Below are positions 2,393 through 28,012 of a stretch of 64,000 nucleotides of DNA, piece by piece. The DNA is from Bacilli bacterium. Its GTDB lineage: Bacteria > Bacillota_I > Bacilli_A > RFN20 > CAG-449. Every line of letters starts with the position of its first letter. The stretch's first letter is position 1. A program made the translations under genes and the position numbers. The DNA lies in contig DBGCPK010000005.1 of NCBI GenBank assembly GCA_048359995.1, forward strand, positions 56,585 to 120,584, read 5' to 3'. The notes beneath the pieces were generated by a model. It was not told the origin of the DNA. It saw nothing but the letters and a program-made list of their open reading frames with translations, and did not search any database.

Positions 2393-2968
2393 ATGGAAGA
2401 GCCATATTGGTGGTATGTATTGCATGTGCGCTCTAACAAAGAGCATCGTGTTGTGGAAAGTTTTCAGCAAGCCTTTAACCAAAAAGGACTTGCATACGAA
2501 TTATACACTTTTTGTCTTGAGTCAGAACACTTCTATAAAGACAAGCAATCCCAAACATTAGGGCGAAAATATATTAAAAGGCCATTATTTCCTGGATATG
2601 TTTTTATAGAAACTAATATGCCATCTAAAGAGTTCATAATGACCTTTTTTTATGTGTTTTATGATTCTGCTGATATAATCCGTCTTTTGCGATACGGAGA
2701 TTCGGATGAAATTGCATTAAAAAAAGAAGAGCGGCAACGTTTTGAATTCCTTTTTAAAGGAAAAAGGGCGATTGAACACTCTATTGGTTATATTGAAGGT
2801 GATAAAATCATTATCACAGGCGGAGGACTAATGGGGCTTGAAGGGTATATCCGAAAAATCAATCGACATAACCGCACTGCAGATGTAGAGATAAATATGT
2901 TTAATCAAAGACAAACTATAAAAGTTGCACTTGAAATTGTGTCAAAATCAGGCAATCAAAAAAAATAG
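2393..2968 (+). CDS. NusG paralog (LoaP/UpxY-like specialized transcription antiterminator), NGN + KOW
   Basis: WYVLHVRSNKEHRV and PLFPGYVFIE NGN-domain motifs, and a C-terminal KOW-like GDKIIITGGGLMGLEGYI. GGAGGGG RBS. It is the first gene of the long co-directional cluster. Confidence 0.8.
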   Translation: MEEPYWWYVLHVRSNKEHRVVESFQQAFNQKGLAYELYTFCLESEHFYKDKQSQTLGRKYIKRPLFPGYVFIETNMPSKEFIMTFFYVFYDSADIIRLLRYGDSDEIALKKEERQRFEFLFKGKRAIEHSIGYIEGDKIIITGGGLMGLEGYIRKINRHNRTADVEINMFNQRQTIKVALEIVSKSGNQKK

Positions 2969-3037: not shown

Positions 3038-3571
3038 ATGAAAGAAGAAATAATAAACGCAAATGAAACTACCTTAAAAATTATTTTTGGTTGCTTAGTT
3101 CGTAACGGAGTAGAAAATACTACAATGCGATCGATATGTAATGCGACAGGCTTGACCGCAAGCAGTTTATATTACCGATTTAAGGACAAGGATGAAATTA
3201 TTTTAGAGGCATCCTGTTATGGGCTTAATTCCGTAACAAAAGAATTGTTTTGGGTTGTAACTGAAAAAATTAATAACTTCCAAGTTTTAATTGCTTTTTT
3301 GAAAAATGTTGATACTAGGAAACAATCTATAAAGCTTATTTATCAAGTTTTAAGTAGCCCTAAGTATGGTGAAAAATTTAGAAAAATGACGCATTCAACA
3401 CCGATGGTAATATATAAGTATACTGGGATGTTGTCAGAGAAACTCAATTGCTCGACAGAAGATTGTTGCTATATGTCGGACTTACAATTGCCGTTATTCG
3501 TGAATATGCAATATGGGAAAACAGGGAAAGCACGAAGCGAAAACTTAAATTTATTTACGACAATTGCTTAG
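3038..3571 (+). CDS. TetR/AcrR-family transcriptional regulator
   Basis: N-terminal HTH TTMRSICNATGLTASSLYYRFKDKDEI, typical of TetR; 177 aa. Confidence 0.7.
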   Translation: MKEEIINANETTLKIIFGCLVRNGVENTTMRSICNATGLTASSLYYRFKDKDEIILEASCYGLNSVTKELFWVVTEKINNFQVLIAFLKNVDTRKQSIKLIYQVLSSPKYGEKFRKMTHSTPMVIYKYTGMLSEKLNCSTEDCCYMSDLQLPLFVNMQYGKTGKARSENLNLFTTIA

Positions 3572-7425: not shown

Positions 7426-9191
7426 TTAGCGTAGTAAGATGTAGTAATAGAATGTGTATACAACTCCCAAAGGGTGTTACATGCAAGATTGGGGATATAA
7501 TTCCTTGCCCTAAAAGTTGTACATGCTTCAAAAAAGTTGAATCATTTTCCGTGGCGTCGGTATGGCAAATGGATGAAAAAAAATCCAGCAGTACGGCCAA
7601 ATATTCTGATGAGGAAATTAGAGCATATTGGGGGCAAGAGAATACGTCATCAGCTTCTTCTACCGATAGTGATATGCAAAGTTCAAATGTAGGCGTTAAC
7701 TCGTCCAATACTGCTTTGGGTGTAGAGCGACACGATAATAATCAAGTTGTAGCGAATGCCAATGAATTTGTAAGACAAAAGTCTTTCGGCAGATCACAGC
7801 GTTCTCAGTCCAATAGTGTTCCCGAAGCCGATGCAATATTGAGACCGCAAGAAAATTATGAAAAAATTGAGATTGGTGGTATGCAATTTACTGATAAAAT
7901 GACGATACTATCGTCGGAAATATCGCAGCCTCTCAGAAATGCTTTGTGGTTTATTTTCTCGCATTGGGAAACTCGTTCAGTTTTTAAAACAGAAACAGAA
8001 TTACGTGATGATTTTATTTGGTTGATAACATCGACTTCTAAACGCACTTTTAAGAAAAGTGAAATTGATGCAATATTATTAAATGAAGAATATGGACTTT
8101 CAGAAAAGTTCTTTTATTTGTTTTACGATATTATCTATCGCTACGAGCCGCCTAAAGGGTTTTACTGGTGCGATAAAGTTCTCTCACCTGATCCTTTAAG
8201 CTCATATTTTAGAGATAAAAAAGATTTTGTAGTTAAGTATTGTAATGCATACGCACAAGGCGAGCAATTTCGTTTGTTTTACATGGCACATAAAAAGGAA
8301 ATTTTACACTTTTTAGGCAGCGATAATGAAGAAAAATTGTTTGAAGACATGACATTATCTTTAGCTAAAGATGTCGGAGAAATTGTATTGATAGATAAAT
8401 ACAATAATTACATGCCGATAAATATGGGTAAGATTTCTTCGTTTATTATTAACATGCAGCAGCCAACTGAATTAAACAACATGAGAAACATGGTTAATTT
8501 TTTGGAAAAATATCGTGTAACACGACTTGGCGTTGTTCCTAGAGCTATTGAATACCCGTTCGAAAAATCTGTCAGGGATGATTTACAAGAAGATGTCAGT
8601 ATGTATGCAACTCTGCGATTAAACTCTTCTGCAAGCTACGCATCGGAATATGATTGCTTTGTGACACTCTTACATGAATATGTTAAGGTATTTAATCCCA
8701 GTGAAATTAAAATAGGTGAATTAACATTTACCCAAAGCAATTTTTCTCACGAATTAGAAGAAATTGTAAAAAACCTTTGCAAATCTTATTTTGGACAAGT
8801 CGCAGATGATGTGTTTGCAGACTATAAAAGTCGCGCATGGCTTGCGAAAAGCATATATGACAGGAACATTTTATCGACATATGTGTTAGAAAATAAATCC
8901 TACGTCGATAAGCTTATGAAACTAATTTCTAATCCAACATTAGAGCAATATATATCAATGTTCGATGATTGTGTTATTCAGTTGCATTATAGAGATTTAA
9001 CTATTCATGAATATATTGCAGAATTAGTGAAAGAAGATATTTATACGGTGTGTGGAGAATTTAGAGAAGACAATATTATTCATGAATTCTTCAATTACAA
9101 AATAAAAAATTGGTCTAAAACAAATTTGAGTGAACTGTTTAATAAATATCAGCGGCAATATGAAGCATTCATTAAAGGAGACATACTATGA
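7422..9191 (+). CDS. Hypothetical protein (589 aa) with Cys-rich N-terminus and Ser-rich linker
   Basis: ATGA overlap with the upstream gene. The N-terminus CSNRMC..CPKSCTC suggests a small metal-binding motif, followed by a low-complexity S/T-rich linker and a globular region. Confidence 0.6.
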   Translation: MISVVRCSNRMCIQLPKGVTCKIGDIIPCPKSCTCFKKVESFSVASVWQMDEKKSSSTAKYSDEEIRAYWGQENTSSASSTDSDMQSSNVGVNSSNTALGVERHDNNQVVANANEFVRQKSFGRSQRSQSNSVPEADAILRPQENYEKIEIGGMQFTDKMTILSSEISQPLRNALWFIFSHWETRSVFKTETELRDDFIWLITSTSKRTFKKSEIDAILLNEEYGLSEKFFYLFYDIIYRYEPPKGFYWCDKVLSPDPLSSYFRDKKDFVVKYCNAYAQGEQFRLFYMAHKKEILHFLGSDNEEKLFEDMTLSLAKDVGEIVLIDKYNNYMPINMGKISSFIINMQQPTELNNMRNMVNFLEKYRVTRLGVVPRAIEYPFEKSVRDDLQEDVSMYATLRLNSSASYASEYDCFVTLLHEYVKVFNPSEIKIGELTFTQSNFSHELEEIVKNLCKSYFGQVADDVFADYKSRAWLAKSIYDRNILSTYVLENKSYVDKLMKLISNPTLEQYISMFDDCVIQLHYRDLTIHEYIAELVKEDIYTVCGEFREDNIIHEFFNYKIKNWSKTNLSELFNKYQRQYEAFIKGDIL

Positions 9192-11092
9192 GCTCAATCG
9201 ATAAATATGTTGAAGGTGAAGCCAGATCATACAATCCTAGAGTTAATGTTGTAAAAAGGGGTGGTATGATAAATGGTTATATCGGTGGCAATTTAGTTTT
9301 TTCAATCGCAGACCGATATGGATATTTAAGCGATTCCGAACGCAGTACGATTAGAAACTCAATTCACGAGTATGAGGCAGAAGAGCAAGAGCGTATAAGA
9401 AGAGAACAAATACGCATTGAAAATGAACGCGTCGCTGTGCGAAATGCGCTTAGAAGCTCTGTAGTAGCTACAAAAAATAAAATTAGAGAATCATACAGTA
9501 ACGCTCAACGGGTAAGTCAAGAAGTAGCATCTTCATTGAGCGTTAAGTCAGTTTTGGATTCATTTAAAAAATATAATATTTCTTCATACATAGAACGTGC
9601 ACAAATTTTGGATCGCAAATTAAAAAGTTGTGTAGAGAGATTAGATGGTGAATACAGAAAAAAAATGCAAGAAGTCGAGTCGCTTGAAAGAACAATACGT
9701 GAAGATTCGACGAGACAGACATATATTCAACAGCAGGATTCCTTAAAGAAAATACACGTAAATTTTACTAATGTTGAATTTCCTGTTTCGGAAATTGAGC
9801 AATTAAAGTTTGAAATTGAAAAACTCAGAGAAGCTATTTTGAAAATCGAAAACATCGAAAAAGAACTTAGCAACGTGGCCAATGATGGGCTCATAGGCTC
9901 AATTGCTGCATCAGCTCTTAAAGAGATTAGACAGTTCAATATTAGTTCATTGGATGATGTAAATAAACTCCTTATTAGTGTTCAGGAACATCTTGGTGAA
10001 ATTCGCAATTTGAAATTTCACCAACAAAGCAAGGAGAGAAGCGATCAAATTGCTTTGTTAAACGGTATATTAAAATCGTGCTCGCAATTGCACGAATATT
10101 TGATTAGCCAGCCCTATGAAGCTACAAATAATCGTAGCGAAATAGTTGAGACAGCTAATCGGGTCTTAGGTATTTATTCAGAACTTGATACAGCTACTTA
10201 TTCTACATGCAGCAAAGAAAAAATTAAAGATGCATATGAATTGGTTCAAGAGGTGTTGGTTGGCTCGGCATCTAATGCTCAAACTCTTGAGTATTTAAAA
10301 CGGTTGCTTGAAGAAGGATTTGTATTTAAGCGCGACGACCAGCTTCAAGCAGATAATTATGCGGACTATATAAAAAAATACAACGAAATGATTGAACGCG
10401 GCGTGTCGATCGAAGAAATTGAAGTTTTTGATCCAATTAATTATTCAGAGCAAAAAAAGCGTCTCAATGAAAAACTGCTTGGATTAGATGTTCAAGAGGG
10501 AATAAATAGAACGCGCACGTCCTTTATGATGGCTTGGAAAGTTATGGAGGATATGGGATATCGTCTTCTGTATCAAAATATGGGAAGCGAAGGCGCAGAC
10601 GCATTAGCTTGCGAAGGTTTATTTGTTAAACCCGGTTATGAGGGGGTTGTATGGCAAGTTGTTGCTTCAGATTGCAATATAACTCGAAAGATAATAGGCG
10701 TTGAAAGGACAAGCGGTTTATCTACTTCAATCCAAAGAGTTAGAGAAGTCGCAGAAATAACAGAGCGCGACGGTGAAGTACAGGAATTCTTTGAGCGATA
10801 TGCAGAAGAAGGCGGTGGTGAACTTCTAGTCACAACTGATGTATATACTGGTTCTCCGGAATGCGAGCAAGCTATTCAAAGCAATGGATGTTTCAAGCTG
10901 TCAGAAGAAGGCGAAAAATGTTTAGATAAATTAGTGGAAACCGATGATGAGAATGCTAAAAAGAAAGGGCGCTCTCGTCTTAGAGCAGGAGAAGGAACAC
11001 CAGTCCAAACTCACGGAGTATCTCATAGTGTGCGTGAACAAGAGTCGCTGAGCGCTAATTCTAGAATAGTTGCCCAAAGAGCTAAGAAGTAA
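9188..11092 (+). CDS. Hypothetical protein (634 aa), coiled-coil rich
   Basis: ATGA overlap. Long heptad-like E/K/R/L-rich stretches and no catalytic motif. Confidence 0.6.
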   Translation: MSSIDKYVEGEARSYNPRVNVVKRGGMINGYIGGNLVFSIADRYGYLSDSERSTIRNSIHEYEAEEQERIRREQIRIENERVAVRNALRSSVVATKNKIRESYSNAQRVSQEVASSLSVKSVLDSFKKYNISSYIERAQILDRKLKSCVERLDGEYRKKMQEVESLERTIREDSTRQTYIQQQDSLKKIHVNFTNVEFPVSEIEQLKFEIEKLREAILKIENIEKELSNVANDGLIGSIAASALKEIRQFNISSLDDVNKLLISVQEHLGEIRNLKFHQQSKERSDQIALLNGILKSCSQLHEYLISQPYEATNNRSEIVETANRVLGIYSELDTATYSTCSKEKIKDAYELVQEVLVGSASNAQTLEYLKRLLEEGFVFKRDDQLQADNYADYIKKYNEMIERGVSIEEIEVFDPINYSEQKKRLNEKLLGLDVQEGINRTRTSFMMAWKVMEDMGYRLLYQNMGSEGADALACEGLFVKPGYEGVVWQVVASDCNITRKIIGVERTSGLSTSIQRVREVAEITERDGEVQEFFERYAEEGGGELLVTTDVYTGSPECEQAIQSNGCFKLSEEGEKCLDKLVETDDENAKKKGRSRLRAGEGTPVQTHGVSHSVREQESLSANSRIVAQRAKK

Positions 11093-11685
11093 TGCAGATA
11101 GAAAGGGCTATGCTAGGGATAAGAACTTTAGGTCCCGGCAATAGATTTGTTATTTGGGTTAATGGTTGCTACCGTAAATGTGCTGGTTGCGTTTCAAAAC
11201 GCTTACAAGCTTTTAACCCTTTTAATGAGCAAGACGTTATTAAATATATATCGCAATTTAGCTTGAGTGAGATTGCCGGGGTAACTATATCTGGGGGAGA
11301 GCCTTTTGAACAGTATACAGATTTATGCAAAGCCGTTAAATACTTTAATCAACAAGGCATTGAGGACATCTTAATTTATACTGGTTATACTTTTGATGAG
11401 CTGAAAGATAAAAAAAACGCAGAGATTAATTACATTTTAGAACACATCGCTGTTTTAATTGATGGTCCGTATGTTCAAAAACTAGATAGTGGATATGGGA
11501 ATCTAAAGGGTAGCGATAATCAAAGAGTAATCATTTTAAACCCCAAAGTAAAACGGCTATATGTTGAGTATTATAGTCCGACTCGAACAATGCAAGAGTT
11601 TTATATCGGCAATATAGTTTTGGCAGCAGGTATTCCCGATGAAGATTATATTAAGAAATTTAGAAATGCAAAAGGAGATCAATGA
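11092..11685 (+). CDS. Radical SAM protein, NrdG-like (anaerobic RNR activase family) small activase
   Basis: DGPGNRFVIWVNGCYRKCAGCVS contains CxxxCxxC and closely parallels the NrdG motif GPG..SGCxHxCPGC. Also a GGEPF SAM-binding motif; 197 aa. Confidence 0.7.
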   Translation: MQIERAMLGIRTLGPGNRFVIWVNGCYRKCAGCVSKRLQAFNPFNEQDVIKYISQFSLSEIAGVTISGGEPFEQYTDLCKAVKYFNQQGIEDILIYTGYTFDELKDKKNAEINYILEHIAVLIDGPYVQKLDSGYGNLKGSDNQRVIILNPKVKRLYVEYYSPTRTMQEFYIGNIVLAAGIPDEDYIKKFRNAKGDQ

Positions 11686-13691
11686 TGGCAGACTCAACTT
11701 TATGTACCGCTGAATATTATTTTGAGTACAAAATTGAAAGAGTTTCTGGAGATGAAAAAGCGATAAAGACTCCTAAAATTTATTTTGAGAGAGATTACCG
11801 CACCTCAAATCTTCCATATACGATGTTTGCAGTTCCTGAAGAATGGTTAAATCAACAGGATCTTGTGAATAGTCTTAAGGGCGAAACAGATGCCGAGACA
11901 GTCAAAAAGATACTCTCAAAATTACCATATGACACGATAAACGTTGTGTTTGATATTAAAGGCATAGCCTGCGCACCTTTAGGCGATGTTAAAAGTATTG
12001 AATACGAAAAAGCAGAGATTCACTTGCCTGATCAAACATTTGAAAAGTTTTATCAAGCAGGTTGTCGTCTTACAATTGAAAACAATAATTCCGAAGATCA
12101 TTCAGGAATAGGTGTCATTGAGATGATTAAAAATAAAGTTACAGTAGCAAAATTTTTCTTTGCCGTCAACTTTACGTTCCGAAAAGATATATCTTATGAA
12201 TTAGAAGTTTCGGGTAAATCTGTAAACATTGAATTTAAATGTAAAGACCGTCCTACTGGTATAGAGGTCGTCATTGTATATAACAAGGATAGGCTTCCTT
12301 GTTTATGCAACGATATGGGCGTTAATATGGTAACGTCGCCGTTTACTTTGGATTTCTCCAAAGGTGAGACATTTCGCAAGACAATACCACTAACAGGTGA
12401 AGCTGCAGCGCAAGGGAATATTTTCTCTATTGCAATAAGAAATCGGCAAATGGCCAAGTATTACATTCTAAATTGCGAAAAGAATACATCTCTTCCGAAT
12501 CAAAGCGATAAAAAAATCAAATCGACTGTTAGCTATACATGTCCATTTTGTCATAAGAAGATAAATTATAGTATTTCAAAAAGCGCCAGATACAAAAAAG
12601 GTGGTACATCGTGTAGCTCAATTGAGGATGCAAAAAGCGGTAAGAAGATACCCACAATTTATAACAAACACAAGGCCAAAGTTAAAAAATGTCTGTTCTG
12701 TTCTGAAGATTTAATGGTAAAAGATAACTCTAGTTTTCAAGATTTAAGAAGACGATTGCTCCCGCTCTCATTCATGGAGCACGACAATTATAAAATTGCT
12801 TTTGCCGGTTCAACAAGAGCTGGTAAGACAACTTATATTTCCAGGTTCTTTGGTATCTCAGGTGACACAAGAATTAGTATGCCAATGACAATGGCTACAA
12901 ATAGCCTAAAACGTTTTGGAATCTATATTAAGTCTGCACCGATACTAGAAGTTAAAAGGGGTACTGAAGGTTATCAATTAACGGACACTAATTGGCCAGA
13001 TATTCAGAAAGAATACATAGAACGTTCAATAGACCTAAATGCAAAAAAATATCCTGAAAGAACTACGACTGGTGATTATACATCATATCCTTTTATTGCT
13101 GAAGTAAACGATAACGCTTATATTTCCTTTTATGATATTGCCGGTGAAGATGCACAGCATTCTATGCTTATTAAGAACATTGCAAATGGTGAACTTATAG
13201 GAATCTTTTGTTTAATTAACGGAAAAACAGATATCGGTGGCAATAGTGATGTTATTAATATGTTAAAGGGTGCAGCACAGAAAGATAAAGACAAGCGCGA
13301 TGATGTTGTAGTTGATAAAAGGTGCCCAATAGCAGTGGTAGTTACAAAAATGGATATGTTAGAGCCTGAATTTGATCCGAATTGTCAATGTTTAAGAAGT
13401 GACTATTTTGATGGCGGCACAATATATGAAGGCAGTGAAATTGAAAGAGTCATAAATATTTCAAGTGAAGAAATTAAGTCGTATTTAAAACAGCATGCAT
13501 TATTGCCGGAATTTGAAGGTTTATATGAGAACGTAAAATACTTCGGGGTTTCATCATTCAATTTTATGGACAGCATACATAATAAGTTGGAGGATATAAA
13601 TACGCCAGGAAAAGTTAAATTTGAATGTTCATCAAAACGAATGGAGCTTCCTTTCCTGTGGATGCTTAAACAATTTGGTGTAATTAGATAA
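11682..13691 (+). CDS. P-loop GTPase (TRAFAC class) with N-terminal domain containing a Cys4 zinc ribbon
   Basis: G1 AGSTRAGKTT, G3 DIAGED and G4 TKMD in the correct order and spacing. An upstream CPFCHKK...CLFCSED Zn-ribbon. Confidence 0.7.
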   Translation: MMADSTLCTAEYYFEYKIERVSGDEKAIKTPKIYFERDYRTSNLPYTMFAVPEEWLNQQDLVNSLKGETDAETVKKILSKLPYDTINVVFDIKGIACAPLGDVKSIEYEKAEIHLPDQTFEKFYQAGCRLTIENNNSEDHSGIGVIEMIKNKVTVAKFFFAVNFTFRKDISYELEVSGKSVNIEFKCKDRPTGIEVVIVYNKDRLPCLCNDMGVNMVTSPFTLDFSKGETFRKTIPLTGEAAAQGNIFSIAIRNRQMAKYYILNCEKNTSLPNQSDKKIKSTVSYTCPFCHKKINYSISKSARYKKGGTSCSSIEDAKSGKKIPTIYNKHKAKVKKCLFCSEDLMVKDNSSFQDLRRRLLPLSFMEHDNYKIAFAGSTRAGKTTYISRFFGISGDTRISMPMTMATNSLKRFGIYIKSAPILEVKRGTEGYQLTDTNWPDIQKEYIERSIDLNAKKYPERTTTGDYTSYPFIAEVNDNAYISFYDIAGEDAQHSMLIKNIANGELIGIFCLINGKTDIGGNSDVINMLKGAAQKDKDKRDDVVVDKRCPIAVVVTKMDMLEPEFDPNCQCLRSDYFDGGTIYEGSEIERVINISSEEIKSYLKQHALLPEFEGLYENVKYFGVSSFNFMDSIHNKLEDINTPGKVKFECSSKRMELPFLWMLKQFGVIR

Positions 13692-17159: not shown

Positions 17160-20100
17160 ATGAACGACAAAATTACTGCAAAGAATGGAATAATTAAGAT
17201 ACTTTCAATTATCGTTGTTGCGATATTAGCAATTGCGGTAACTGTTATTGGCATCTTATTGCTCAATAAAGATTCAAACACTGAAAATGCAAGCTATAGC
17301 ATCATTGTCGATGATGAAATTACAATATATGAGGGAGATACATTTACTTTAGTTCCATATTTGGTAAACAAGGATGGAACGGTAGTTGAATCTCGCTTTG
17401 ATTATTCGGCATCTGATAAGGCTATATCTGTTAATGTTGACGGTGTGATTTCCGTAAACTCAATTCCCGAAAATGATGTCCACGTATCAATTTATGAGCG
17501 CAACACGTCTACAACTGCTGAAGTAAACGTTAATATCGTCGGTAGACTCACTAAAGTCTTGGGCATTACTTTCAGCGATTTAGCTGGAAATAAGATGTTG
17601 GTGTCGGGCACACAGAATTTAAAATTAGGTGAAACTTATATCATTGACGTAGTGACTGAACCACGTAATGTCGAAATTGAGAATTATTGTCTTTTGCAGG
17701 CTCTGAATTCGAGCGGTACTGAAAAGAATGTATTTGAATTTGCATACACCAAAACTAATGTTAGTATGACGGCAGTTGGTCTTGGATCTGGAACATTGCT
17801 GCTCGATATAACAAATGACGATAATCAGTCCATATACGATACTGATTTCGATTTTTCCGTCTCGATGTCTGATGAGAATCTTAGCGAAGAGATACTGAAT
17901 AGTACTAATACAACTTTATTATCAAAAGAAGAGCTTAACAAAATTGAAAAAGTTGAGTTGAGTCAAAATGTTTCAAATTTAGATGGTTTACAAAATTTAA
18001 CATCATTAAAAACGGTTGTATTTACAGCTGATGAGGTAATGAATATTGAGAATATCTCTCAGAACTATTGTTACAGAATTAAAACAAATTTGTTTGAGAA
18101 TTATCTAGATGCGAATAATTGGGCAGATTATTTAAAATGTATAATTCCTTATGAAGAAAGTGCTGATGAACTTTTTATTGTATATCATAATGCAAAGACT
18201 GCAACAGGAGAGGAAAATGTTGTATATGAAAGGTTAGAGAATATTGCAAATTTTCCTACTTATATTTTTGAGGGATATACGAATTTTGGATGGTTAGATG
18301 GAACCGAAACAGAGGTATCTTTATCTCAAGTTAAGGCTTCCGTAAAGAGTAATGGCATACATTTATATGCCGGTTGGAATCCTATATCATATAAAGTTGT
18401 TTATCACATTAGAGATTCTGAGGTCGCTAACAAAGAAGAGATCTTTTATTACGATACAGAATATTTACTTAAAGTGCCTAACGAGATTGATAGTTCAATA
18501 ACTCATACTGGATATAAATTTGCTGGTTGGACACGTAATAGAAATTCAAATACTTTCTCACCTAATGTGCAATTTAGGAATGGCGACGCTATCTCTAATT
18601 TAACTAGCGAAGCTGATGCTATTATAGATTTGTATGATATTTGGGAGCCAATAGAATATACGGTTATTTTTTCATCTGTCGAAGGGATGGAAGAGATTGC
18701 AGACCTTACAGCAAAATATAATACAGCATATACGTTACCGACACCATCTAGACCCGGTTATGCATTTAATTATTGGAAGCTTAATAACGGAGATATATTG
18801 AATGCAGGGATACAAGATCCTAACCTTGATTCCGAATTAAATTTATCAAGTATTGAAGGCGCAGAAATAATTCTTACTCCAGATTTCACTGAAATAACCT
18901 ATACAATAACATTTAGGCTAAATGGAGGTCAAGCCCTTCAGGATCTGTCATTTGTAGATGGATACAGAAAGACATTGTATTATGAGGAAGAATATACTTT
19001 ACCCTATTTAACTAAAGAAGGGTATACGAGATATTACTGGCTTTGTGCTGAAAATGGTAAACAATATAAACTAGATGAGAATAACAAAGGACCAAAACTT
19101 TTACAAGAATTTACTACAGCATGCGAGGTAACATTCTCTGCGGTTTGGACGTCAGCAGAATACAGTATTAATTATGATTGCAATGGTGGTAATATTGCCG
19201 GAGATAGTTATGTGACAGATACAAGATTTTGGGACGATGGTGGTTCCTTGTTAACGCCTCAAAGAATAGGATATACTTTCGTAAAATGGCAAGATATTGA
19301 TCATGAAGATATTAGCTATGTTCCCGAAGATGCCGGATGGACAAGCAACTTAATTAAGTCTGCGCAAGAGGATGGTGCCGAATTCAATTTTAAAGCCGTA
19401 TGGCAAATAAATTACTACGATCTCACTATATCAACTGGTGCGGGAACTAGCTTATCTGTTAAAGTAAACGATCAAACTAAACTTGACGGTACGTATAGTG
19501 TCGCATATAATAGCACAATTACTGTTAGTTATAGTGCAAATACAGGGTATAGTAATGCCGAATGCACTTTCCCTGGCGGTAATATGCCTGCTAATAATCT
19601 AACAATAAAGTCTAGTGCTACAATCAATAAACATAATGTAACAATCATTATTGGCAGTGGCTCATATATGACTGTAAACATAGGCGGGACATCATATTCG
19701 AACAACCAAACAGTTAAAAATGTAGCTTATGGAACTTCAATTTCTGTTTCAAACTATGGTGCTACTAACGGTTATCATGACGGTTGGGCTTCATGCGATT
19801 ATAGCACGATGCCGGATTATGATATTACAGTTAGCTCTGGAGCTACACCAGATTCATGTTTTACAAAGGGAACAATGTTAATGCTAGGAGATGGGACTTC
19901 AGTTGCCGTTGAAAATCTCAGAATCAACGATATAATTTTAGCATTTGATCATTCCACGGGACAGTATGTTGAAAGTCGAATACTTTATACTTATTATGGC
20001 TACGATTATGTACCGTCAATTGAACTATATTTCTCCAATAAAGCAGTTCTCGAATTCTTAAATGTAGGACATGGTCTTTTTGATGCTACGATGAATGAAT

Positions 20101-20543
20101 ATGTTCTCATTAACGCTAACAACGTGCAAGAATATGTAGGACATGAGTTCTTATATACAAGCTTTATTGACGGCAATTTTGTCGCTAATACAGTCAAATT
20201 AGAATCTTACATTGTTTCGAGCAAATTAGTTGAACGTTACGATATTGTAACGGAAAGCACATTAAATCATATTGCCAATGGATTACTTGCATGCTCGGAT
20301 ACATTGGTAGGAATTTGCAATATGTTCAAGTTTGATGATGACTTTACTTATGACATTGTGCAGTTGCAAATCGATATAGAAACATACGGATTATATACGT
20401 ATGATGAATGGAGGAAATATATATCATATGAGGATTTTGTTTCTTTCAATGGTGCATATTTTAAAATTGCCGTAGGAAAGGGATTAATAAGCGTAGATGA
20501 AATATTATCGCTTCTTGATGATTTGTCTGAAAATCGCGCATAG
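17160..20543 (+). CDS. Large surface protein: N-terminal TM anchor, Big_2-like Ig domains, LRR-like segment, multiple Listeria-Bacteroides (Flg_new) repeats, C-terminal Hint domain plus about 80-aa extension
   Basis: Repeated Y.I.YD.NGG...P.R.GYTF.GW units. Hint hallmarks CFTKGTMLMLGDGT, VGHGLF and YDIVTESTLNHIANGLLA. Confidence 0.75.
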   Translation: MNDKITAKNGIIKILSIIVVAILAIAVTVIGILLLNKDSNTENASYSIIVDDEITIYEGDTFTLVPYLVNKDGTVVESRFDYSASDKAISVNVDGVISVNSIPENDVHVSIYERNTSTTAEVNVNIVGRLTKVLGITFSDLAGNKMLVSGTQNLKLGETYIIDVVTEPRNVEIENYCLLQALNSSGTEKNVFEFAYTKTNVSMTAVGLGSGTLLLDITNDDNQSIYDTDFDFSVSMSDENLSEEILNSTNTTLLSKEELNKIEKVELSQNVSNLDGLQNLTSLKTVVFTADEVMNIENISQNYCYRIKTNLFENYLDANNWADYLKCIIPYEESADELFIVYHNAKTATGEENVVYERLENIANFPTYIFEGYTNFGWLDGTETEVSLSQVKASVKSNGIHLYAGWNPISYKVVYHIRDSEVANKEEIFYYDTEYLLKVPNEIDSSITHTGYKFAGWTRNRNSNTFSPNVQFRNGDAISNLTSEADAIIDLYDIWEPIEYTVIFSSVEGMEEIADLTAKYNTAYTLPTPSRPGYAFNYWKLNNGDILNAGIQDPNLDSELNLSSIEGAEIILTPDFTEITYTITFRLNGGQALQDLSFVDGYRKTLYYEEEYTLPYLTKEGYTRYYWLCAENGKQYKLDENNKGPKLLQEFTTACEVTFSAVWTSAEYSINYDCNGGNIAGDSYVTDTRFWDDGGSLLTPQRIGYTFVKWQDIDHEDISYVPEDAGWTSNLIKSAQEDGAEFNFKAVWQINYYDLTISTGAGTSLSVKVNDQTKLDGTYSVAYNSTITVSYSANTGYSNAECTFPGGNMPANNLTIKSSATINKHNVTIIIGSGSYMTVNIGGTSYSNNQTVKNVAYGTSISVSNYGATNGYHDGWASCDYSTMPDYDITVSSGATPDSCFTKGTMLMLGDGTSVAVENLRINDIILAFDHSTGQYVESRILYTYYGYDYVPSIELYFSNKAVLEFLNVGHGLFDATMNEYVLINANNVQEYVGHEFLYTSFIDGNFVANTVKLESYIVSSKLVERYDIVTESTLNHIANGLLACSDTLVGICNMFKFDDDFTYDIVQLQIDIETYGLYTYDEWRKYISYEDFVSFNGAYFKIAVGKGLISVDEILSLLDDLSENRA

Positions 20544-22852: not shown

Positions 22853-23193
22853 TGATTGTTGAGAGAAATTACGCAGACAGAGTTCTCATCTTATTAAGTG
22901 AATTAGTTCATATTTTTCCAGAAGATTATCAAGCGCAACTTCAGCTTCTTGAGCAGCAATTAAATGAACTAAGCTGTGATGAGGATTTGATTATTTTTGT
23001 AATACATTTCCTAAAAAAATATTTACTTAAAAATAGCAACAAGCCCCCAAAAGCAGTTTTTTTCGAAGAGTGCAAAGAGGAAAAAGCCAGTAACATTAAT
23101 TGTGTAAACGTTAAGATTGATGAATTAATTGCGGCGCTGAATTGGTTATTAGACGGGCAAAATCAAACTGAATTTAAAGGAATTATTAGATAG
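22849..23193 (+). CDS. Small hypothetical helical protein (114 aa)
   Basis: ATGA overlap with the upstream gene; acidic/helical composition; no motif. Confidence 0.5.
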   Translation: MMIVERNYADRVLILLSELVHIFPEDYQAQLQLLEQQLNELSCDEDLIIFVIHFLKKYLLKNSNKPPKAVFFEECKEEKASNINCVNVKIDELIAALNWLLDGQNQTEFKGIIR

Positions 23194-23195
23194 CA

Positions 23196-24506
23196 ATGAT
23201 AAAACAGATACTTTCGGGGAATTTATTAGAAAAGAATAGCCCTCCAGTGATAGATGATCCACTTATCTATATTAATGGAACATGTAATGGTTCCCGCGCA
23301 TCGTTTATGCTAAATGAGAGCATTTTGAGTAAACATATGATGCTCATAGGTGGAACTGGGTGTGGCAAAACTAATACTTTTCTCCATTTGGTTAAACAAC
23401 TTAAATCCAGCATGACAGAAGACGATGTGATGATTATTTTTGATACAAAAGGCGATTATCATAGTAAGTTTTTTAATTCTAACAAGGATTACGTTTTGTC
23501 CGCATCATCTCTGTATAAACAAGACGCTTGTACATGGAATATATTTAGCGAAATTTTAGCTGACGGCAATAGAGCAAGCGAAATTGAACCTAATATTGCA
23601 GAAATATCATGGGGACTTTTTAGCGTGAGCATCGAAAAAAATAATAGTAATCCATTTTTCCCTAATGCAGCAAGAGACCTTTTTTCTTCGATTTTAACAT
23701 GTATTGTAAGGTATGCTGAAGGGAGAGAAGACTGGATATCTAAATATTTACATAATGCTTTTTTGAAAACTAAACTTGATAAAATGAATGCTAAAGCAAT
23801 TGGTGAATTGCTGAAGGACTACGATGATCAAGCTGCTGTAATGAGTTACATTGGCAATGGAGAGAATCAACAAGGGTTGGGCGTAATGGCCGAGATGCAG
23901 TCAGTTATCAGGAAAGTATTTGTAGGTGCATTCGCAGAGAAGGGTGACTTCTCCATTAGAAAATTTATTAGAGACAAAGGAGCTAAAACACTTTTTATCG
24001 AATATGACTTGTCGCGGGGAGCCACATTAACTCCAATATACAAGTTACTTATTGACCTGGCATTAAAGGAAGCAATGAGCAGAAAATGCAAAGGTAATGT
24101 GTATTTATTCTGTGACGAGTTTAAACTGTTACCTTACTTACAACATATCGAAGACGCGGTTAACTTTGGGCGTTCTTTAGGTGTTAAGGTTTTTGCAGGA
24201 CTTCAAAGTATAGATCAGCTCTATGAAAATTATGGCGAAGCTAGAGGAAAAAACATTATCGCTGGATTTTCAAGCGTTTTATCTTTCAAGGCCAATGATG
24301 AAGACACACGAACTTTTACCTCTGGATTATACGGTAAAAATTACATATTGGAGCAGTATAGAGTATTGGAAAATGCTTATGCCGAAGATAAAAGATTAGG
24401 CTCTGTTGTTGAAGATTGGGAAATTTGTAGCTTACAAGTTGGTGAAGCAGTTGTTGGGTTGCCTAACACAGCACCATTCAAATTTAAATTCGATTTATAT
24501 AGGTGA
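23196..24506 (+). CDS. VirD4/TraG-family (type IV coupling protein-like) P-loop ATPase, soluble form lacking N-terminal TM segment
   Basis: Walker A LIGGTGCGKTNT, Walker B LFCDEF, NPFFPNAARDLFSSIL (the DPFW..AA..LL motif of T4CPs), and GRSLGVKVFAGLQSIDQLYENYG (the GRS.G.....Q...QL..YG block). Confidence 0.65.
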   Translation: MIKQILSGNLLEKNSPPVIDDPLIYINGTCNGSRASFMLNESILSKHMMLIGGTGCGKTNTFLHLVKQLKSSMTEDDVMIIFDTKGDYHSKFFNSNKDYVLSASSLYKQDACTWNIFSEILADGNRASEIEPNIAEISWGLFSVSIEKNNSNPFFPNAARDLFSSILTCIVRYAEGREDWISKYLHNAFLKTKLDKMNAKAIGELLKDYDDQAAVMSYIGNGENQQGLGVMAEMQSVIRKVFVGAFAEKGDFSIRKFIRDKGAKTLFIEYDLSRGATLTPIYKLLIDLALKEAMSRKCKGNVYLFCDEFKLLPYLQHIEDAVNFGRSLGVKVFAGLQSIDQLYENYGEARGKNIIAGFSSVLSFKANDEDTRTFTSGLYGKNYILEQYRVLENAYAEDKRLGSVVEDWEICSLQVGEAVVGLPNTAPFKFKFDLYR

Positions 24507-26047
24507 TCAGAATGTTAAGAGCGATTTTTGGTTTTTTTGTCGGTCTATTTCGACGCAGTTCAAATCTTAGAAATACTGAACAGCAATTAAATAATATTGA
24601 TGTTCAGAATGAAACAAACAAAAATGTCGTTGAGTATCGGAATAATGCCATAGAAGCATTTGTTCCAAACGGAACTGAAAATATTGTTGTTTCTGGTTCA
24701 AATGAAAGTTTACGTAATAGAGTAAACTGCGCATCTGCTTGGCGTTGCCATGAGGTGGGAAGGGCAGCAGTCATTTTACATTGCAGTAATTATCAGTTAT
24801 CTGAGCTGATCGATGAAACATTTAGCGGCGAGAGGGGCTTTCATAATTTGAATAGTCGTAATCCATATTACGATCCTTTTGTTGGCTTAAACCGTTCGGA
24901 AATTTCACAGATGATTTTGAGTTCATCTGGTAGCAATTATAAAATTGAGCGAATAGGAAATTCGTATATATATGGATTAATCGATTACCTTCAGCTAATT
25001 GGTAGACCTATTTGCGTTGAAACTTTTAATAACTGCTTACGAGATAGAAGCTACGAACAAATTATGGAGCAGGCAGAACGAGGAAATATTTCCGAATTTA
25101 TTGCTAGGCGAATTAATTCAGAATTAGCACAAGGAAAACTTGAAGCTGGAAACATTGAACAATACTTTACGGTATTAAAGCAGCAAACTGGAAATACTCT
25201 AGCTGATGAATCATCCGTCTCTAATGCTATCAGTATTAAAAAAGCTTTAAGACAAAATGAAATCATAGCATTTGATATCGGTGATGCATCCAATTCATTA
25301 TTACTTAATTTGGTTATTCAAGAAATAAGAGATGCAATTTCTGCAGGACTAAGATTTACACTGATTATTGATTCAATTCCAGTTGATTCATCGGAATCTC
25401 TTGGACAGTTGATGAGGAATTTTTCAGGTATGTGCTCGTTTGTTTATTCGTCTCCAGATGCATATACAAGTGCTCAAAGTACAGCAAATATTTTTGACAC
25501 CATTCTTGGACGAGCCAATACCGTATTTGTATTGCAGCATTCATCTACTTCCAGTGGAAGATTTTCTCAGTTTTTAGGTCAATATCAAAAAATAGAAGTT
25601 AATCATACTTTTACAAGCGGAGATACATATGCAACATTTGGGCAAATTCTGCCCGGTTCATCATCTGCAAATATTTACGGAACGCAATTGGTTAATAGAG
25701 CTCGAGTAGAGGAAAACGAAATTTCATCTCAGAGTCCCGAGCACGTATATATTAAAAGAAGTGGAACCAATGAGATAATAAGTGTGAGGTGTACAGGTGG
25801 TAGCGCAAAGACTCATTACGAAACGCCGCAAATAAATATTTCACGCCGTCCTAGAGCAACCAGACGAAGAATGAGTTGGATTGTTTTTATTTTATTGTTC
25901 GTTTTCTGTTGTCCGGCTGCATTTATTTACTCGTTTGTAAAATCGGGCAGAATAGGAAAAATTGTCAGTGCAATATTCTTTTTCTTAGTGCTGGCATTGT
26001 ACATTTGTCAGATTGTTTTAATTGTCAATGGTAGGACGGTTAGTTAA
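24503..26047 (+). CDS. Polytopic membrane protein (514 aa), N-terminal TM and two C-terminal TM helices
   Basis: ATGA overlap with the upstream ATPase gene. Hydrophobic N-terminus AIFGFFVGLF. C-terminal helices WIVFILLFVFCCPAAFIYSF and IVSAIFFFLVLALYICQIVLIV. Confidence 0.6.
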   Translation: MIRMLRAIFGFFVGLFRRSSNLRNTEQQLNNIDVQNETNKNVVEYRNNAIEAFVPNGTENIVVSGSNESLRNRVNCASAWRCHEVGRAAVILHCSNYQLSELIDETFSGERGFHNLNSRNPYYDPFVGLNRSEISQMILSSSGSNYKIERIGNSYIYGLIDYLQLIGRPICVETFNNCLRDRSYEQIMEQAERGNISEFIARRINSELAQGKLEAGNIEQYFTVLKQQTGNTLADESSVSNAISIKKALRQNEIIAFDIGDASNSLLLNLVIQEIRDAISAGLRFTLIIDSIPVDSSESLGQLMRNFSGMCSFVYSSPDAYTSAQSTANIFDTILGRANTVFVLQHSSTSSGRFSQFLGQYQKIEVNHTFTSGDTYATFGQILPGSSSANIYGTQLVNRARVEENEISSQSPEHVYIKRSGTNEIISVRCTGGSAKTHYETPQINISRRPRATRRRMSWIVFILLFVFCCPAAFIYSFVKSGRIGKIVSAIFFFLVLALYICQIVLIVNGRTVS

Positions 26048-26706
26048 AAAATATAGCATCTATACTGATTTAATACTTGCTAAAGCAAATCAGTAAAGAA
26101 ACAAATTAATTTATGCAAGTTGTGCAATGATAATATCTTTAATTGTTATTTGCTGTTTGATAGTAACAAGGGTAACGATATGATCAACGGTATAAGCATT
26201 TTGATTGTATGTCGAGGAAGAATAGTTCTTCTTTATACTGCAAAATCTTTGCAGCTTGAACAATTTTATTCAATAATACTGAAAGATTTTTAATTTTCGT
26301 CAGGTGACAACTTAAATTCAGTTAAAAAAAGAAAAACGAAGAAAAGACAAAGTAAGTTCCGAAAAAAGAGACAGGGAGTTGCTATTTTCATGACAAAGTA
26401 AGTTCAGCCAGTAAAAGAATTCAATGAAACTATTGATAAAAAACAGAAATTACCTTAATATGAAGATGCTTAAAGATAGCAAAAAGACAAAGAAAAAAGA
26501 ACTCACGGAATATCGTTGCCAAACTCAATTCCGTAAATTGATGGGTATATATTTTTGTTAATTTGTCCTTGCCATATGCATCTTTAAGTTTTTTTATTCT
26601 TTATATTTTCTAATAAGTGATTTGGTTAGATGAATACCATCAAATGGATTTTTTTTTGATATTAGGAGAGTCAAGTATTTCACTTCCAAAGATAAATTCA
26701 AAGATT

Positions 26707-27535
26707 TCATATTGCAGGAAATATTTTTTTAAAATTATCAATTCCAATTCTATCTTGAATGAAATTAAATGCTGAAACAATCGTTGAAGCTTCTTTATTA
26801 AGAACTAAGATACCAATCATAAAATTTGAAAAAGGAAATAGAAGAGTCATTAGATATTGTGAATCATTGGTTTTACCAATAACTAAATCAAGTTGAGGAA
26901 TATATACTTGACGATTTTCTGCAAGAAATTTTAAATAGTCTTCATACATTCTTCCATCTCTGATTGCTTGTAATTCTTTTCTTTCTTTGTCTTTGTACTT
27001 GTAAGCTTTTCTTGGCTTCATTTTTACTTTATTTCGTAAATCATGATCTTTTATTTGAAGATATCTATTTGTTACATAATGGTAAACAGTTCTTTCGGAT
27101 ACACCTATCTCAGGATGATTGATCATAGTAGTAATGATGAATCCGACAAGAACCAGTCTTTTGACAACCATTGCATACATAAGGGAATCTAGTTAAACGA
27201 GAACAAGTCTTGATAACAAAATCTTACAAATGAGAGTAAGATCTTTCGTAATACATTTTCTACATTCATATGCACATAATGTTGAACAGACTTTCGTTTT
27301 CTTACATTCCTTTACTTTTGAACAAATACAACAATATGGACGAATATAATCACCGCGTTTTACTTGTTTTACATAACGATGCTTCCGAATTTCTTTGGAG
27401 AATGAAGTAGGATCTTTTCCAATCTTCCTCGCAATTTCATTTTATTTTGTTCCTTTTTTGATTTCAATTAAGATAGTATCTCTTTGATCGAGAGTCATAT
27501 GTGTTCCTTTTGCCATTCTTTTCCTTCCTTTCTTT
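26707..27535 (-). mobile_element. IS30-family transposase gene remnant (in-frame stops, 3'-truncated)
   Basis: Reverse-strand translation gives an IS30-like HTH (IARKIGKDPTSFSKEIRKHRY, cf. IA..L.RSPSTISREIQRN). It also gives the catalytic-core region DLVIGKTNDSQYLMTLL (cf. GHWEGDLVSGTKNSHIATLV). The reading frame is broken by stop codons and ends before the final third of the DDE domain. Confidence 0.55.
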
Positions 27536-28012
27536 TTGGCGAGGTCCATCTTCATTATACTATTGTCACACTAAATTTCACTTTTCCTTTTTTAAACTGA
27601 TTTTATGTTGGCACTTATCGGATTTTTAATTTTTATAAAAATTGTTCATCAGTTAATGCTTTGAAAATGACGAAAAGATATTGAGCATTCTTGCAAAAAA
27701 AGGGGATTGCCAAACTTTGGGTATATAAAGAAGTTGAAAATATCTGTTCGTTACTCTATTTTGCGGGTTCAACATTCTTATTATATAAATCTTTTACAGA
27801 TAACGAAAAGGCGGAAGAGCGGAGAATCAATGTGTTGTCGTTTTTCATGATAAATAAGTTATTTCACAGAAAAAAAGTTTAATTTTTTCTTTTTAACTCT
27901 GGTTTTTTACGGGAAAACGCGTCGATCAACCGGCAGTTGATTCGTTCAATTTTAATTATTTTGCTTTTTTTGCATAACTGCACTTATACTAAAAGCGAGG
28001 AGGTTGTTGAAA

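Follow-up and report, generated by a model that had tools for sequence, protein, structure and literature searches.

How might an almost wholly unannotated operon of about 24 kb be transcribed to its end from a promoter that can be turned around? The question is raised by a 64,000-nucleotide stretch of DNA from a Bacilli bacterium (GenBank assembly GCA_048359995.1, contig DBGCPK010000005.1, positions 56,585 to 120,584 of the forward strand), which was analysed as a whole and is referred to here as the window. A sequence-only reading had proposed that the open reading frame (ORF) at positions 2393–2968 encodes a specialised NusG paralog of the "LoaP/UpxY class", composed of an NGN and a KOW domain and providing operon-specific antitermination behind a single switchable promoter. 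The analysis supports that reading. The gene, loaP, is a LoaP-family member from a divergent clade of gut Clostridia, and its product is quite probably a processive antiterminator working in cis on the operon in which loaP comes first, under the control of a phase-switched promoter. As an annotation, loaP is ordinary by itself; the NCBI pipeline would name it "antiterminator LoaP", and LoaP genes are known beside long operons. The regulator is known and this is a new instance of it; what is unusual is the setting.

The NusG paralog and the operon it heads

The loaP ORF lies on the plus strand, with an ATG start at 2393 and an end at 2968, and encodes a product of 191 amino acids. GGAGG is located at 2384–2388, 4 nt 5′ of the ATG. 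Both of the NGN motifs previously pointed out are present, as WYVLHV at residues 7–12 and PLFPGYVFIE at residues 64–73, and Pfam recognises NusG/NGN over residues 7–117 (46.3 bits versus a cut-off of 22.2). The KOW domain (PF00467) did not reach significance in this protein in a Pfam search (E ≤ 0.01), but its presence is borne out by the NCBIfam LoaP profile, which aligns over its full length (positions 1–166 of 166, on residues 7–185), and by an AlphaFold model. That model, made from a 33-sequence alignment (A1; mean pLDDT 89.5, pTM 0.82), consists of an NGN domain, a linker helix, and a five-stranded β-barrel at residues 130–186. Pfam KOW is also recorded in several close homologues.

Comparison with the available NusG-family models places the protein in LoaP only. 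The best score among them is that of antiterm_LoaP (NF033641), at 132.5 bits against a curated cut-off of 125, whereas nusG (TIGR00922; 63.6 versus 135.7), UpxY (NF033644; 47.3 versus 100), and RfaH (TIGR01955; 27.4 versus 144.5) all fall short. Of the proposed "LoaP/UpxY class", then, the first name stands and the second does not. Structure gives the same answer. A sequence search of the PDB put entry 8f5g on top (E 4.6e-10), and a Foldseek search with the model returned three 8f5g chains ("NusG-RNA complex") as the best matches, with TM scores of 0.72–0.81 over both domains and 185–189 aligned columns, while NusG and RfaH entries reached only 0.36–0.52 (query-normalised). Entry 8f5g is presumably the LoaP-dfn hairpin complex cited in a 2025 mBio paper on LoaP of Bacillus velezensis.

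A protein search identified 162 relatives, mostly from metagenome-assembled genomes (MAGs) of Clostridia and Christensenellales, including one of 61% identity that bears the NCBI name "antiterminator LoaP". Identity to Paenibacillus LoaP is about 40%. The window protein, which is itself the reference row of A1, keeps all 24 columns that are invariant in that alignment, and exactly the same protein is encoded on other contigs. In B. velezensis LoaP, the RNA-binding residues are E40, R41, K128, and I143. By eye, in a comparison with Paenibacillus LoaP, the Glu of the "..QER.." motif appears to be the invariant E45, with His in place of Arg in the window protein, and the KOW patch KINRHNRTA resembles KIDRHKRQA of Paenibacillus.

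No second NusG-like ORF occurs in the 64-kb window, and loaP has no secE or rplK neighbours. The surroundings are instead an island between dusB and lysS, and the housekeeping NusG with secE/rplK synteny that the sequence-only reading had named as its own refutation was not found. As that reading had supposed, loaP leads its operon, being the first of 18 co-directional plus-strand genes at 2393–26047. Gaps between these genes are at most 69 nt, many neighbours overlap by 1–17 nt, and a seeming gap of 333 nt at 22863–23195 holds an ORF of 114 amino acids. The GC content is 33–37% in the island versus 42–48% in the flanks, which carry dusB (48–905) on one side and an HTH gene, lysS, and htpG on the other.

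The invertible promoter and the leader

Upstream of loaP, a small serine recombinase of the invertase/resolvase type is encoded on the minus strand at 1395–2018 (Pfam Resolvase, 93.2 bits; weak Mpi-family match in NCBIfam) and is the presumed flipase. Its ORF extends to 2054, and the likely start is the ATG at 2018, with AAGGAG before it. Between the recombinase gene and loaP are two inverted repeats with 26-nt arms, 88% complementary and 77 nt apart: IRL at 2103–2128 and IRR at 2206–2231, the latter of which would be the 5′ part of the leader in the ON state. The 77-nt segment that they enclose (2129–2205) contains, on the minus strand, the best promoter-like site of the segment, with a –35 TTGCAA at 2198–2193, a 17-nt spacer, and a –10 TATACT at 2175–2170. 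As found in the window, the promoter points to the recombinase gene, so that the loaP operon is switched OFF.

Alignment of the upstream regions of near-identical and related loci (A2) was used to score the orientation of the segment. In L045, whose LoaP is 92% identical and heads the same operon, the segment is reverse-complemented, and a TTGCAA-17-TGnTACAAT promoter is directed at loaP. The ON orientation was found in three assemblies (L045, L046, and L184) and the OFF orientation in five, counting the window (L047, L048, L183, and L185 being the others). The promoter segment has therefore inverted naturally across independent assemblies. Two further contigs, L186 and L187, end within the right repeat, as would be the case if a sample mixes both states. 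Moreover, a polymorphic base of the repeat (TTTT[G/T]CTAAC) moves with the segment between L183 and L184, locating the crossover to the repeat's outer half. The "single switchable promoter" of the sequence-only reading is thus borne out by both orientations in near-identical elements from other samples, with the proviso that in the window itself it is OFF for the operon.

With inverted repeats around a promoter, an adjacent recombinase gene, and both orientations in nature, the locus has all the marks of an inverton. In these respects, and in the shortness of its promoter cassette and the small size of its serine recombinase, it is like the Hin/Gin-type, Bacteroides Mpi, and Clostridioides difficile RecV switches. 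It differs from serine-invertase switches in that the OFF promoter faces the recombinase gene, such that expression of the recombinase may depend on the state of the switch. It also differs from Bacteroides Mpi, one master invertase working in trans, in encoding its recombinase beside the switch. Recombinases 69–74% identical to that of the window are encoded at the equivalent position in L006 and L007, and Resolvase genes lie there in L045, L047, L183, and L184.

The sequence 3′ of the right repeat is conserved even where LoaP identity drops to 60%. A search of the leader for either an ops-like element or a hairpin had been suggested, and both kinds of element were found. A covariance model of the leader, R1, was built from 11 leaders, with the structure set by hand on a consistent subset and the sequences then realigned with the model. 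It matches the window over its full length at 2252–2360 on the plus strand (107.1 bits, E 1.2e-27), hits the window only this once, directly 5′ of loaP, and has matches directly upstream of LoaP genes in about 25 loci. These include LoaPs of the Paenibacillus polymyxa group (annotated as LoaP by NCBI), a nonribosomal peptide synthetase (NRPS) locus of Ruminiclostridium cellobioparum (two copies), and a polysaccharide locus of Acetivibrio mesophilus, although R1 was built on the clade of the window. In the 11-sequence seed, 93.6% of the cells pair, as opposed to 36–49% with slid partners, and 15 of the 24 pairs change on both sides; none of 500 shuffles reached the observed values. When 28 distinct sequences were realigned to R1, 89.9% paired and 22 of 24 pairs had compensatory changes, in an alignment that is biased toward the model by having been fitted to it.

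The order of conserved elements in the leader is UGAAG, P0, P1, GGACAUA, P2, and GAAAGG-GCGAAGC-AUAC, all on the plus strand. P0 (2257–2302) is an outer helix, with 2257–2263 pairing with 2296–2302, and encloses P1. All seven of its pairs change on both sides, and its arms read GUUGU/GCAAC in the window, GUCGCCGAU/AUCGGCGGC in L015, and ACGAUUA/UAAUCGU in L024. P1 (2267–2293) is a bulged hairpin of the sequence UUUGC-U-CG-U-AGCU-UUG-GGCU-CG-GCAAA, in which the C-G and G-C core pairs are nearly invariant, and is the candidate LoaP-binding RNA. In B. velezensis, LoaP binds the dfn hairpin GGCCAAUCGCGUCUUCGGCACGUUGCC, which is required for antitermination (mBio 2025, Table S2). Read from the base upward at minimum free energy, that hairpin has a lower stem, a U bulge of 1 nt, C-G/G-C, another 1-nt bulge, and an upper stem closed by a loop, and P1 is laid out identically. 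Leaders of Paenibacillus and Ruminiclostridium bridge the P1 of the window and the dfn hairpin: they read AAUCGC...CACG(U/A)U where dfn reads AAUCGC...CACGUU, and R1 puts them in the P1 columns. The hairpin of the Acetivibrio leader has this reading too.

Antitermination is lost when the 10 nt immediately before the dfn hairpin are removed, and no reason is offered in the paper (mBio 2025). A P0-type helix would explain this loss, in a comparison that covers the dfn sequence as far as the hairpin. The dfn upstream sequence starts UGAUG-AAG, like the leader of the window. Directly 3′ of P0, the GGACAUA block (2303–2309) occupies invariant or nearly invariant columns in alignments A3 and A4, and its counterpart in the Paenibacillus and Ruminiclostridium leaders is GGAUAUA or GGAACAUA. 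P2 (2323–2341), a candidate pause hairpin, was recovered independently by RNAalifold, with compensatory changes in six of six pairs, and is separated from GCGAAGC by a constant spacer of 6 nt, commonly GAAAGG. On the MAFFT alignment, RNAalifold recovered P2 alone, and it missed P1 because P1 was misaligned in four of the sequences. Scans with Rfam gave nothing at gathering thresholds over the whole window, and on the leader at E ≤ 10 gave only chance-level matches, chiefly to microRNA models set off by the inverted repeats.

The last conserved element is the ops-like GAAAGG-GCGAAGC-AUAC at 2342–2358, with GCGAAGC at 2348–2354. The 9-mer GGGCGAAGC, whose core is GCGAAGC, is almost invariant and lies within about 100 nt 5′ of the LoaP start in most loci, down to protein identities of 34–42%. 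Of 44 NusG-paralog loci, 14 have GCGAAGC in their upstream 160 nt, versus 1.2% expected from the rest of the same loci. As DNA, d(GCGAAGC) is a classic and very stable mini-hairpin. In a study of Bacteroides UpxY, the opsX element was described as combining a pause hairpin with a hairpin in the non-template DNA just after it, of the form 5′-YGCGNAGCR, and was compared with the RfaH ops, 5′-GCGGTAGC (PMC11685472). The GCGAAGC of the window fits the GCGNAGC form exactly. In the same study, opsX and the RfaH ops were set against the "proposed nascent RNA hairpin" of LoaP (PMC11685472). We propose that LoaP leaders may carry an ops-type, hairpin-stabilised pause besides their RNA hairpin.

A metagenome-wide scan for GAAAGGGCGAAGCNTAC returned at least 120 stretches, mostly chance matches in coding DNA, and a LoaP gene followed in 2 of the 122 matches listed. 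One match, on a viral contig, has no LoaP-like gene downstream. The scan was uninformative, so the association of the motif with LoaP rests on the loci that were found via the protein. In L035, four copies of GGGCGAAGC lie inside a tandem coding repeat and are irrelevant here, and a text search of the literature for GGGCGAAGC gave nothing relevant among the papers listed. Two distant NusG paralogs, 27–29% identical to the LoaP of the window, have similar sequences upstream: at L036:9900–9925 (Terriglobia) there is a hairpin followed by GGGGCGAAGCUAC, and at L042:9930–9960 (Flavobacteriia) there is GGCGAAGCC. These sequences hint that the GCGAAGC element is shared beyond LoaP.

A terminator scan also marked a weak terminator-like hairpin, GGGCGAAG-CAUACCU-UUUCGCUU, at 2346–2368 on the plus strand (2346–2378 with its U-poor tail), that uses the ops-like motif as its 5′ arm. 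The pairing is kept in L045 and L056, with one compensatory change in L010, and the hairpin could possibly be a leader attenuator. The notion that GGGCGAAGC is merely the 5′ arm of a leader terminator did not prove general, as canonical loci start loaP about 30 nt 3′ of the motif and the pairing is absent there. In another arrangement, a full leader element (62 bits) at L049:609–725 and L050:165–281 heads a gene cluster whose last gene, 8.8 kb downstream, is loaP. The leader copy upstream of that loaP itself is degenerate (19.9 bits), and an Rnf operon follows. The element accordingly marks the target and not the gene, and the two can be uncoupled.

LoaP recruitment and the rival explanations

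In the mechanism that we favour, the serine recombinase would flip the 77-nt promoter cassette between its 26-nt inverted repeats. In the ON state, transcription from an extended –10 promoter would pass through the right repeat and yield a leader of about 160 nt, and the nascent RNA would fold into P0 and P1, the bulged hairpin being of the LoaP-binding type. RNA polymerase would then reach the second hairpin, followed by GGGCGAAGC, where a hairpin-stabilised, ops-like pause might give LoaP the time to load. The LoaP-modified elongation complex would resist NusA-assisted termination, pausing, or polarity over 23.7 kb of AT-rich DNA. Since the site that recruits LoaP lies 5′ of loaP itself, basal read-through would set up positive feedback and sharpen the ON state. 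Membership in the family, the fold, the layout of the operon, natural inversion, and a conserved, covarying leader are established here, whereas binding to RNA, a pause at the ops-like site, antitermination, and the feedback are steps that we infer.

Much of this scheme agrees with what is known of LoaP from B. velezensis, which serves the dfn and mln polyketide operons. As there, an NGN-KOW paralog that scores above the NF033641 cut-off and has a fold matching the LoaP-RNA structure is encoded with its target operon, and the bulged hairpin of the leader, with its U bulge, C-G/G-C core, and second bulge, has another conserved site and a hairpin downstream. The composite leader of the window occurs at canonical LoaP loci as well. 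On the side of the differences, the protein is only about 40% identical to LoaP of Paenibacillus and scores just above the cut-off (132.5 versus 125 bits), P1 has a loop other than UNCG, loaP heads the operon 3′ of the leader, the promoter is invertible, and the 17 mostly unannotated cargo genes are of neither the polyketide/NRPS nor the polysaccharide kind.

Several observations weigh against the proposed mechanism. The window –10, TATACT, is without the TG extension found in relatives. Folding of 2206–2400 alone is no better than that of shuffled sequence (z = –0.37), and the leader structure emerged only by comparison. The apical loop of P1 is UUUG/UUG, without the UNCG tetraloop of dfn and mln; P1 loops vary among relatives, leaders of Paenibacillus LoaPs likewise have no UNCG, and the tetraloop does not appear to be family-wide. 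Four leaders keep P0/P1 yet are without GCGAAGC. A NusA-enhanced pause was mapped between the dfn hairpin and the terminator, and deletion of the dfn pause had a moderate effect only; moreover, LoaP did not bind specifically to single-stranded DNA from 5′ of the hairpin (mBio 2025). Finally, a simple scan that may overlook atypical terminators gave nothing stronger than weak terminator-like sites on the plus strand of the operon, and these are no more numerous than in shuffled sequence. With no strong intrinsic terminators in the operon, the "need" for antitermination seen in the sequence-only reading becomes a presumption.

The last of these points counts in favour of an alternative in which the main job of LoaP is to counter Rho-dependent polarity or silencing imposed on foreign AT-rich DNA, or to strengthen the ON state by positive feedback, rather than to allow read-through of intrinsic terminators. 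An island of 33–37% GC in a genome of 42–48% GC, the position of loaP downstream of its own leader, and the counter-silencing activity of RfaH and similar NusG paralogs are all in keeping with such a role. The characterised LoaP, however, acts on NusA-enhanced intrinsic terminators, reportedly without other factors, terminators of atypical form may have escaped the scan, and this analysis gave no sign of Rho dependence. We regard this alternative as unlikely, albeit worth bearing in mind.

A second alternative concerns the way in which LoaP is recruited. Here, recruitment would be UpxY- or RfaH-like and depend mainly on an ops-like non-template DNA hairpin, GCGAAGC, in a hairpin-paused complex, with P0/P1 being accessory or serving another role. 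GCGAAGC is indeed the most invariant block of the leader down to the lowest protein identities at which it was found (34–42%), takes the opsX form YGCGNAGCR, resembles the RfaH ops GCGGTAGC, and is preceded by a hairpin at fixed spacing, as in class-1 opsX. In addition, the Terriglobia paralog at L036 has a hairpin and GCGAAGC upstream without a P1-like element. The locus is also laid out like the Bacteroides capsule loci with UpxY/UpxZ and Mpi-inverted promoters, in that an invertible promoter is followed by a leader and then by a locus-specific NusG paralog, first in a long operon. The leader hairpin comes before a GCGNAGC-type element in both, and some genomes have several such loci. Unlike UpxY, the paralog belongs to another NusG subfamily (47 bits versus 100) and another phylum; the second gene is of the TetR family and not UpxZ, and a P0/P1 RNA domain is present.

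RfaH too is a specialised NusG paralog for long, horizontally acquired operons, and the leader motif GGGCGAAGCAU resembles its ops GGCGGTAGCGT, with a loop one base shorter; the 12-nt ops GGCGGTAGnnTG itself is absent from the leader, whose GGGCGAAGCAUA is similar only. Unlike RfaH, the protein scores far under the cut-off of the RfaH model and has a C-terminal domain predicted to be a β-barrel rather than an α-hairpin, and rfaH itself stands alone and serves several operons in trans. Considering that the UpxY and RfaH scores are both far under their cut-offs, that the best structural match is a LoaP-RNA complex, that every leader keeps a covarying P0/P1, including the four without GCGAAGC, and that B. 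velezensis LoaP needs its RNA hairpin, recruitment mainly through the DNA element seems improbable.

The two remaining explanations are poorly supported. That loaP is decaying, or an orphan copy that at present has no role, might be suggested by the OFF switch of the window, with its promoter facing away, by cargo unrelated to known LoaP targets, and by the loaP genes of L049 and L050, which are apart from the cargo and have degenerate leaders. This is very hard to reconcile, however, with an intact ORF that keeps the 24 invariant columns of A1 (of which it is the reference row), with copies 92% identical that head the same operon in other samples and the exact protein on other contigs, or with a leader that scores 107 bits, and OFF is one of two states seen in the population. 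Housekeeping NusG, which would share the NGN and KOW domains, is already refuted by score (TIGR00922, 63.6 versus 135.7) and by synteny, the gene having no secE or rplK nearby and lying in a low-GC island behind an invertible promoter.

Several points give the locus added value. About 25 leaders yield a full covarying model (P0, P1, GGACAUA, P2, and GGGCGAAGC), which extends the single published dfn hairpin. The model predicts that the mapped dfn pause, a candidate counterpart of the ops-like site, coincides with the ops-like GCGAAGC, and it bears on how LoaP finds RNA polymerase, a question that the 2025 study leaves open. Furthermore, the locus ties LoaP to an invertible promoter, as a Clostridial parallel to the UpxY capsule switches of Bacteroides, and relatives repeat the design with other types of recombinase. 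In a literature search, a paper on UpxY and its preprint were the only items to mention both LoaP and invertible promoters, with incomplete coverage that makes this an absence of evidence only. A 2025 survey of invertons connects UpxY, but not LoaP, to these elements.

Relatives of the module and cargo of the island

Comparison of the related loci indicates that the recombinase, inverted repeats, leader, and loaP form a conserved module and that the cargo varies. In L045, the same order of 18 operon genes follows the 92%-identical LoaP, amid mobile-element genes (YqaJ, a RecD-like helicase, and DUF3854). In L056–58, the module sits behind a tyrosine recombinase and adjoins conjugation genes, and is followed by an operon with a TraG-like ATPase, DUF2225, a kinase, and a vWA protein. 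In L052–55, it precedes a giant LRR protein and biosynthetic genes. Among 98 downstream proteins from 15 loci, the commonest families are glycosyltransferases and sugar-nucleotide enzymes.

Inverted repeats that enclose 77–155 nt are found just 5′ of the leader and are of at least three types. The first is the serine-recombinase type of the window, L045, L006, and L009. The second has 21–24-nt arms with 153 nt between them and occurs in L056 and L004, a tyrosine recombinase gene being directly upstream in L056. The third, with 31–33-nt arms, occurs in L023 and L026. Some genomes have several LoaP loci, including three in Ca. Scatousia and two in another MAG. In MAGs with two or three such loci, a conserved protein of 224–261 amino acids without a Pfam family is encoded right after loaP (L003:869–1543, L007:1244–1924, L009:977–1678, L021:1910–2611, and L023:2321–3106; 26–81% identical across the five loci). 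This second gene sits where UpxZ sits in the Bacteroides capsule loci, a place that is taken in the window by the TetR-family gene.

Taking these relatives together, it is conceivable, and we offer the idea tentatively, that LoaP recruitment is bipartite and follows an ancestral logic common to RfaH and UpxY, in which an RNA hairpin would be combined with a pause at a GCGAAGC non-template mini-hairpin, from gut Clostridia to Paenibacillus and even the paralogs of Terriglobia and Flavobacteriia. In gut Clostridia, this module would have been joined to at least three repeat types of invertible promoters, worked by serine or tyrosine recombinases, and in multi-copy genomes to the family-less second gene. 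Together, these parts would make up a Firmicute counterpart of the UpxY/UpxZ phase-variation hierarchy that drives glycan loci and also other cargo, like that of the 18-gene operon in the window.

The cargo of the window consists of the 17 genes after loaP (3038–26047, plus strand), as delimited by ORFs, family scans, and hydropathy. Family matches include a TetR-family regulator, which is the second gene of the operon (3038–3571), a transglutaminase-like protein, a ClpB-like AAA+ ATPase, an NrdG-like radical-SAM activase, a 1127-aa membrane-anchored repeat protein, a DUF2225 protein, and a TraG/VirD4-like ATPase with a 514-aa partner. Nine cargo proteins have no family in Pfam, NCBIfam, PHROGs, or PADLOC. 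Although the role of the cargo is something that we infer, a 24-kb operon that is nearly all unannotated, and that gut populations turn on and off, is a reasonable target for functional work.

The 1127-aa protein (17160–20543) carries a membrane anchor at its N-terminus, followed by Listeria-Bacteroides repeats, and ends in a Hint (bacterial intein-like) domain that starts with CFTKGT near residue 900; it looks like a processed surface protein or one of the polymorphic-toxin type. The DUF2225 gene comes directly after it. The NrdG-like glycyl-radical-enzyme activase (11092–11685; TIGR02491, 97 bits, under its cut-off) is translationally coupled to proteins of 634 (9188–11092) and 669 (11682–13691) amino acids, both without a family; no glycyl-radical enzyme partner was recognisable. 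The TraG/VirD4-like ATPase and its membrane-tailed partner of 430–514 amino acids (23196–26047 in the window) recur in LoaP-led operons at L024:2666–5273 and L056:10595–13256, and the L024 pair is 59% and 31% identical to that of the window. The ATPase had prompted a reading of the operon as a conjugation (type IV secretion) system, which was not adopted, as no VirB4-type ATPase or relaxase was detected in it or beside the recurring pair. In L056, the pair is followed by DUF2225, a protein kinase, and a vWA protein.

Finally, the borders of the island (900–1395 and 26048–28003) contain no integrase and no tRNA gene. The left border is a 490-nt stretch 3′ of dusB, and the right border is AT-rich (29% GC) and carries a DUF3990-like gene on the minus strand at 26707–27180.

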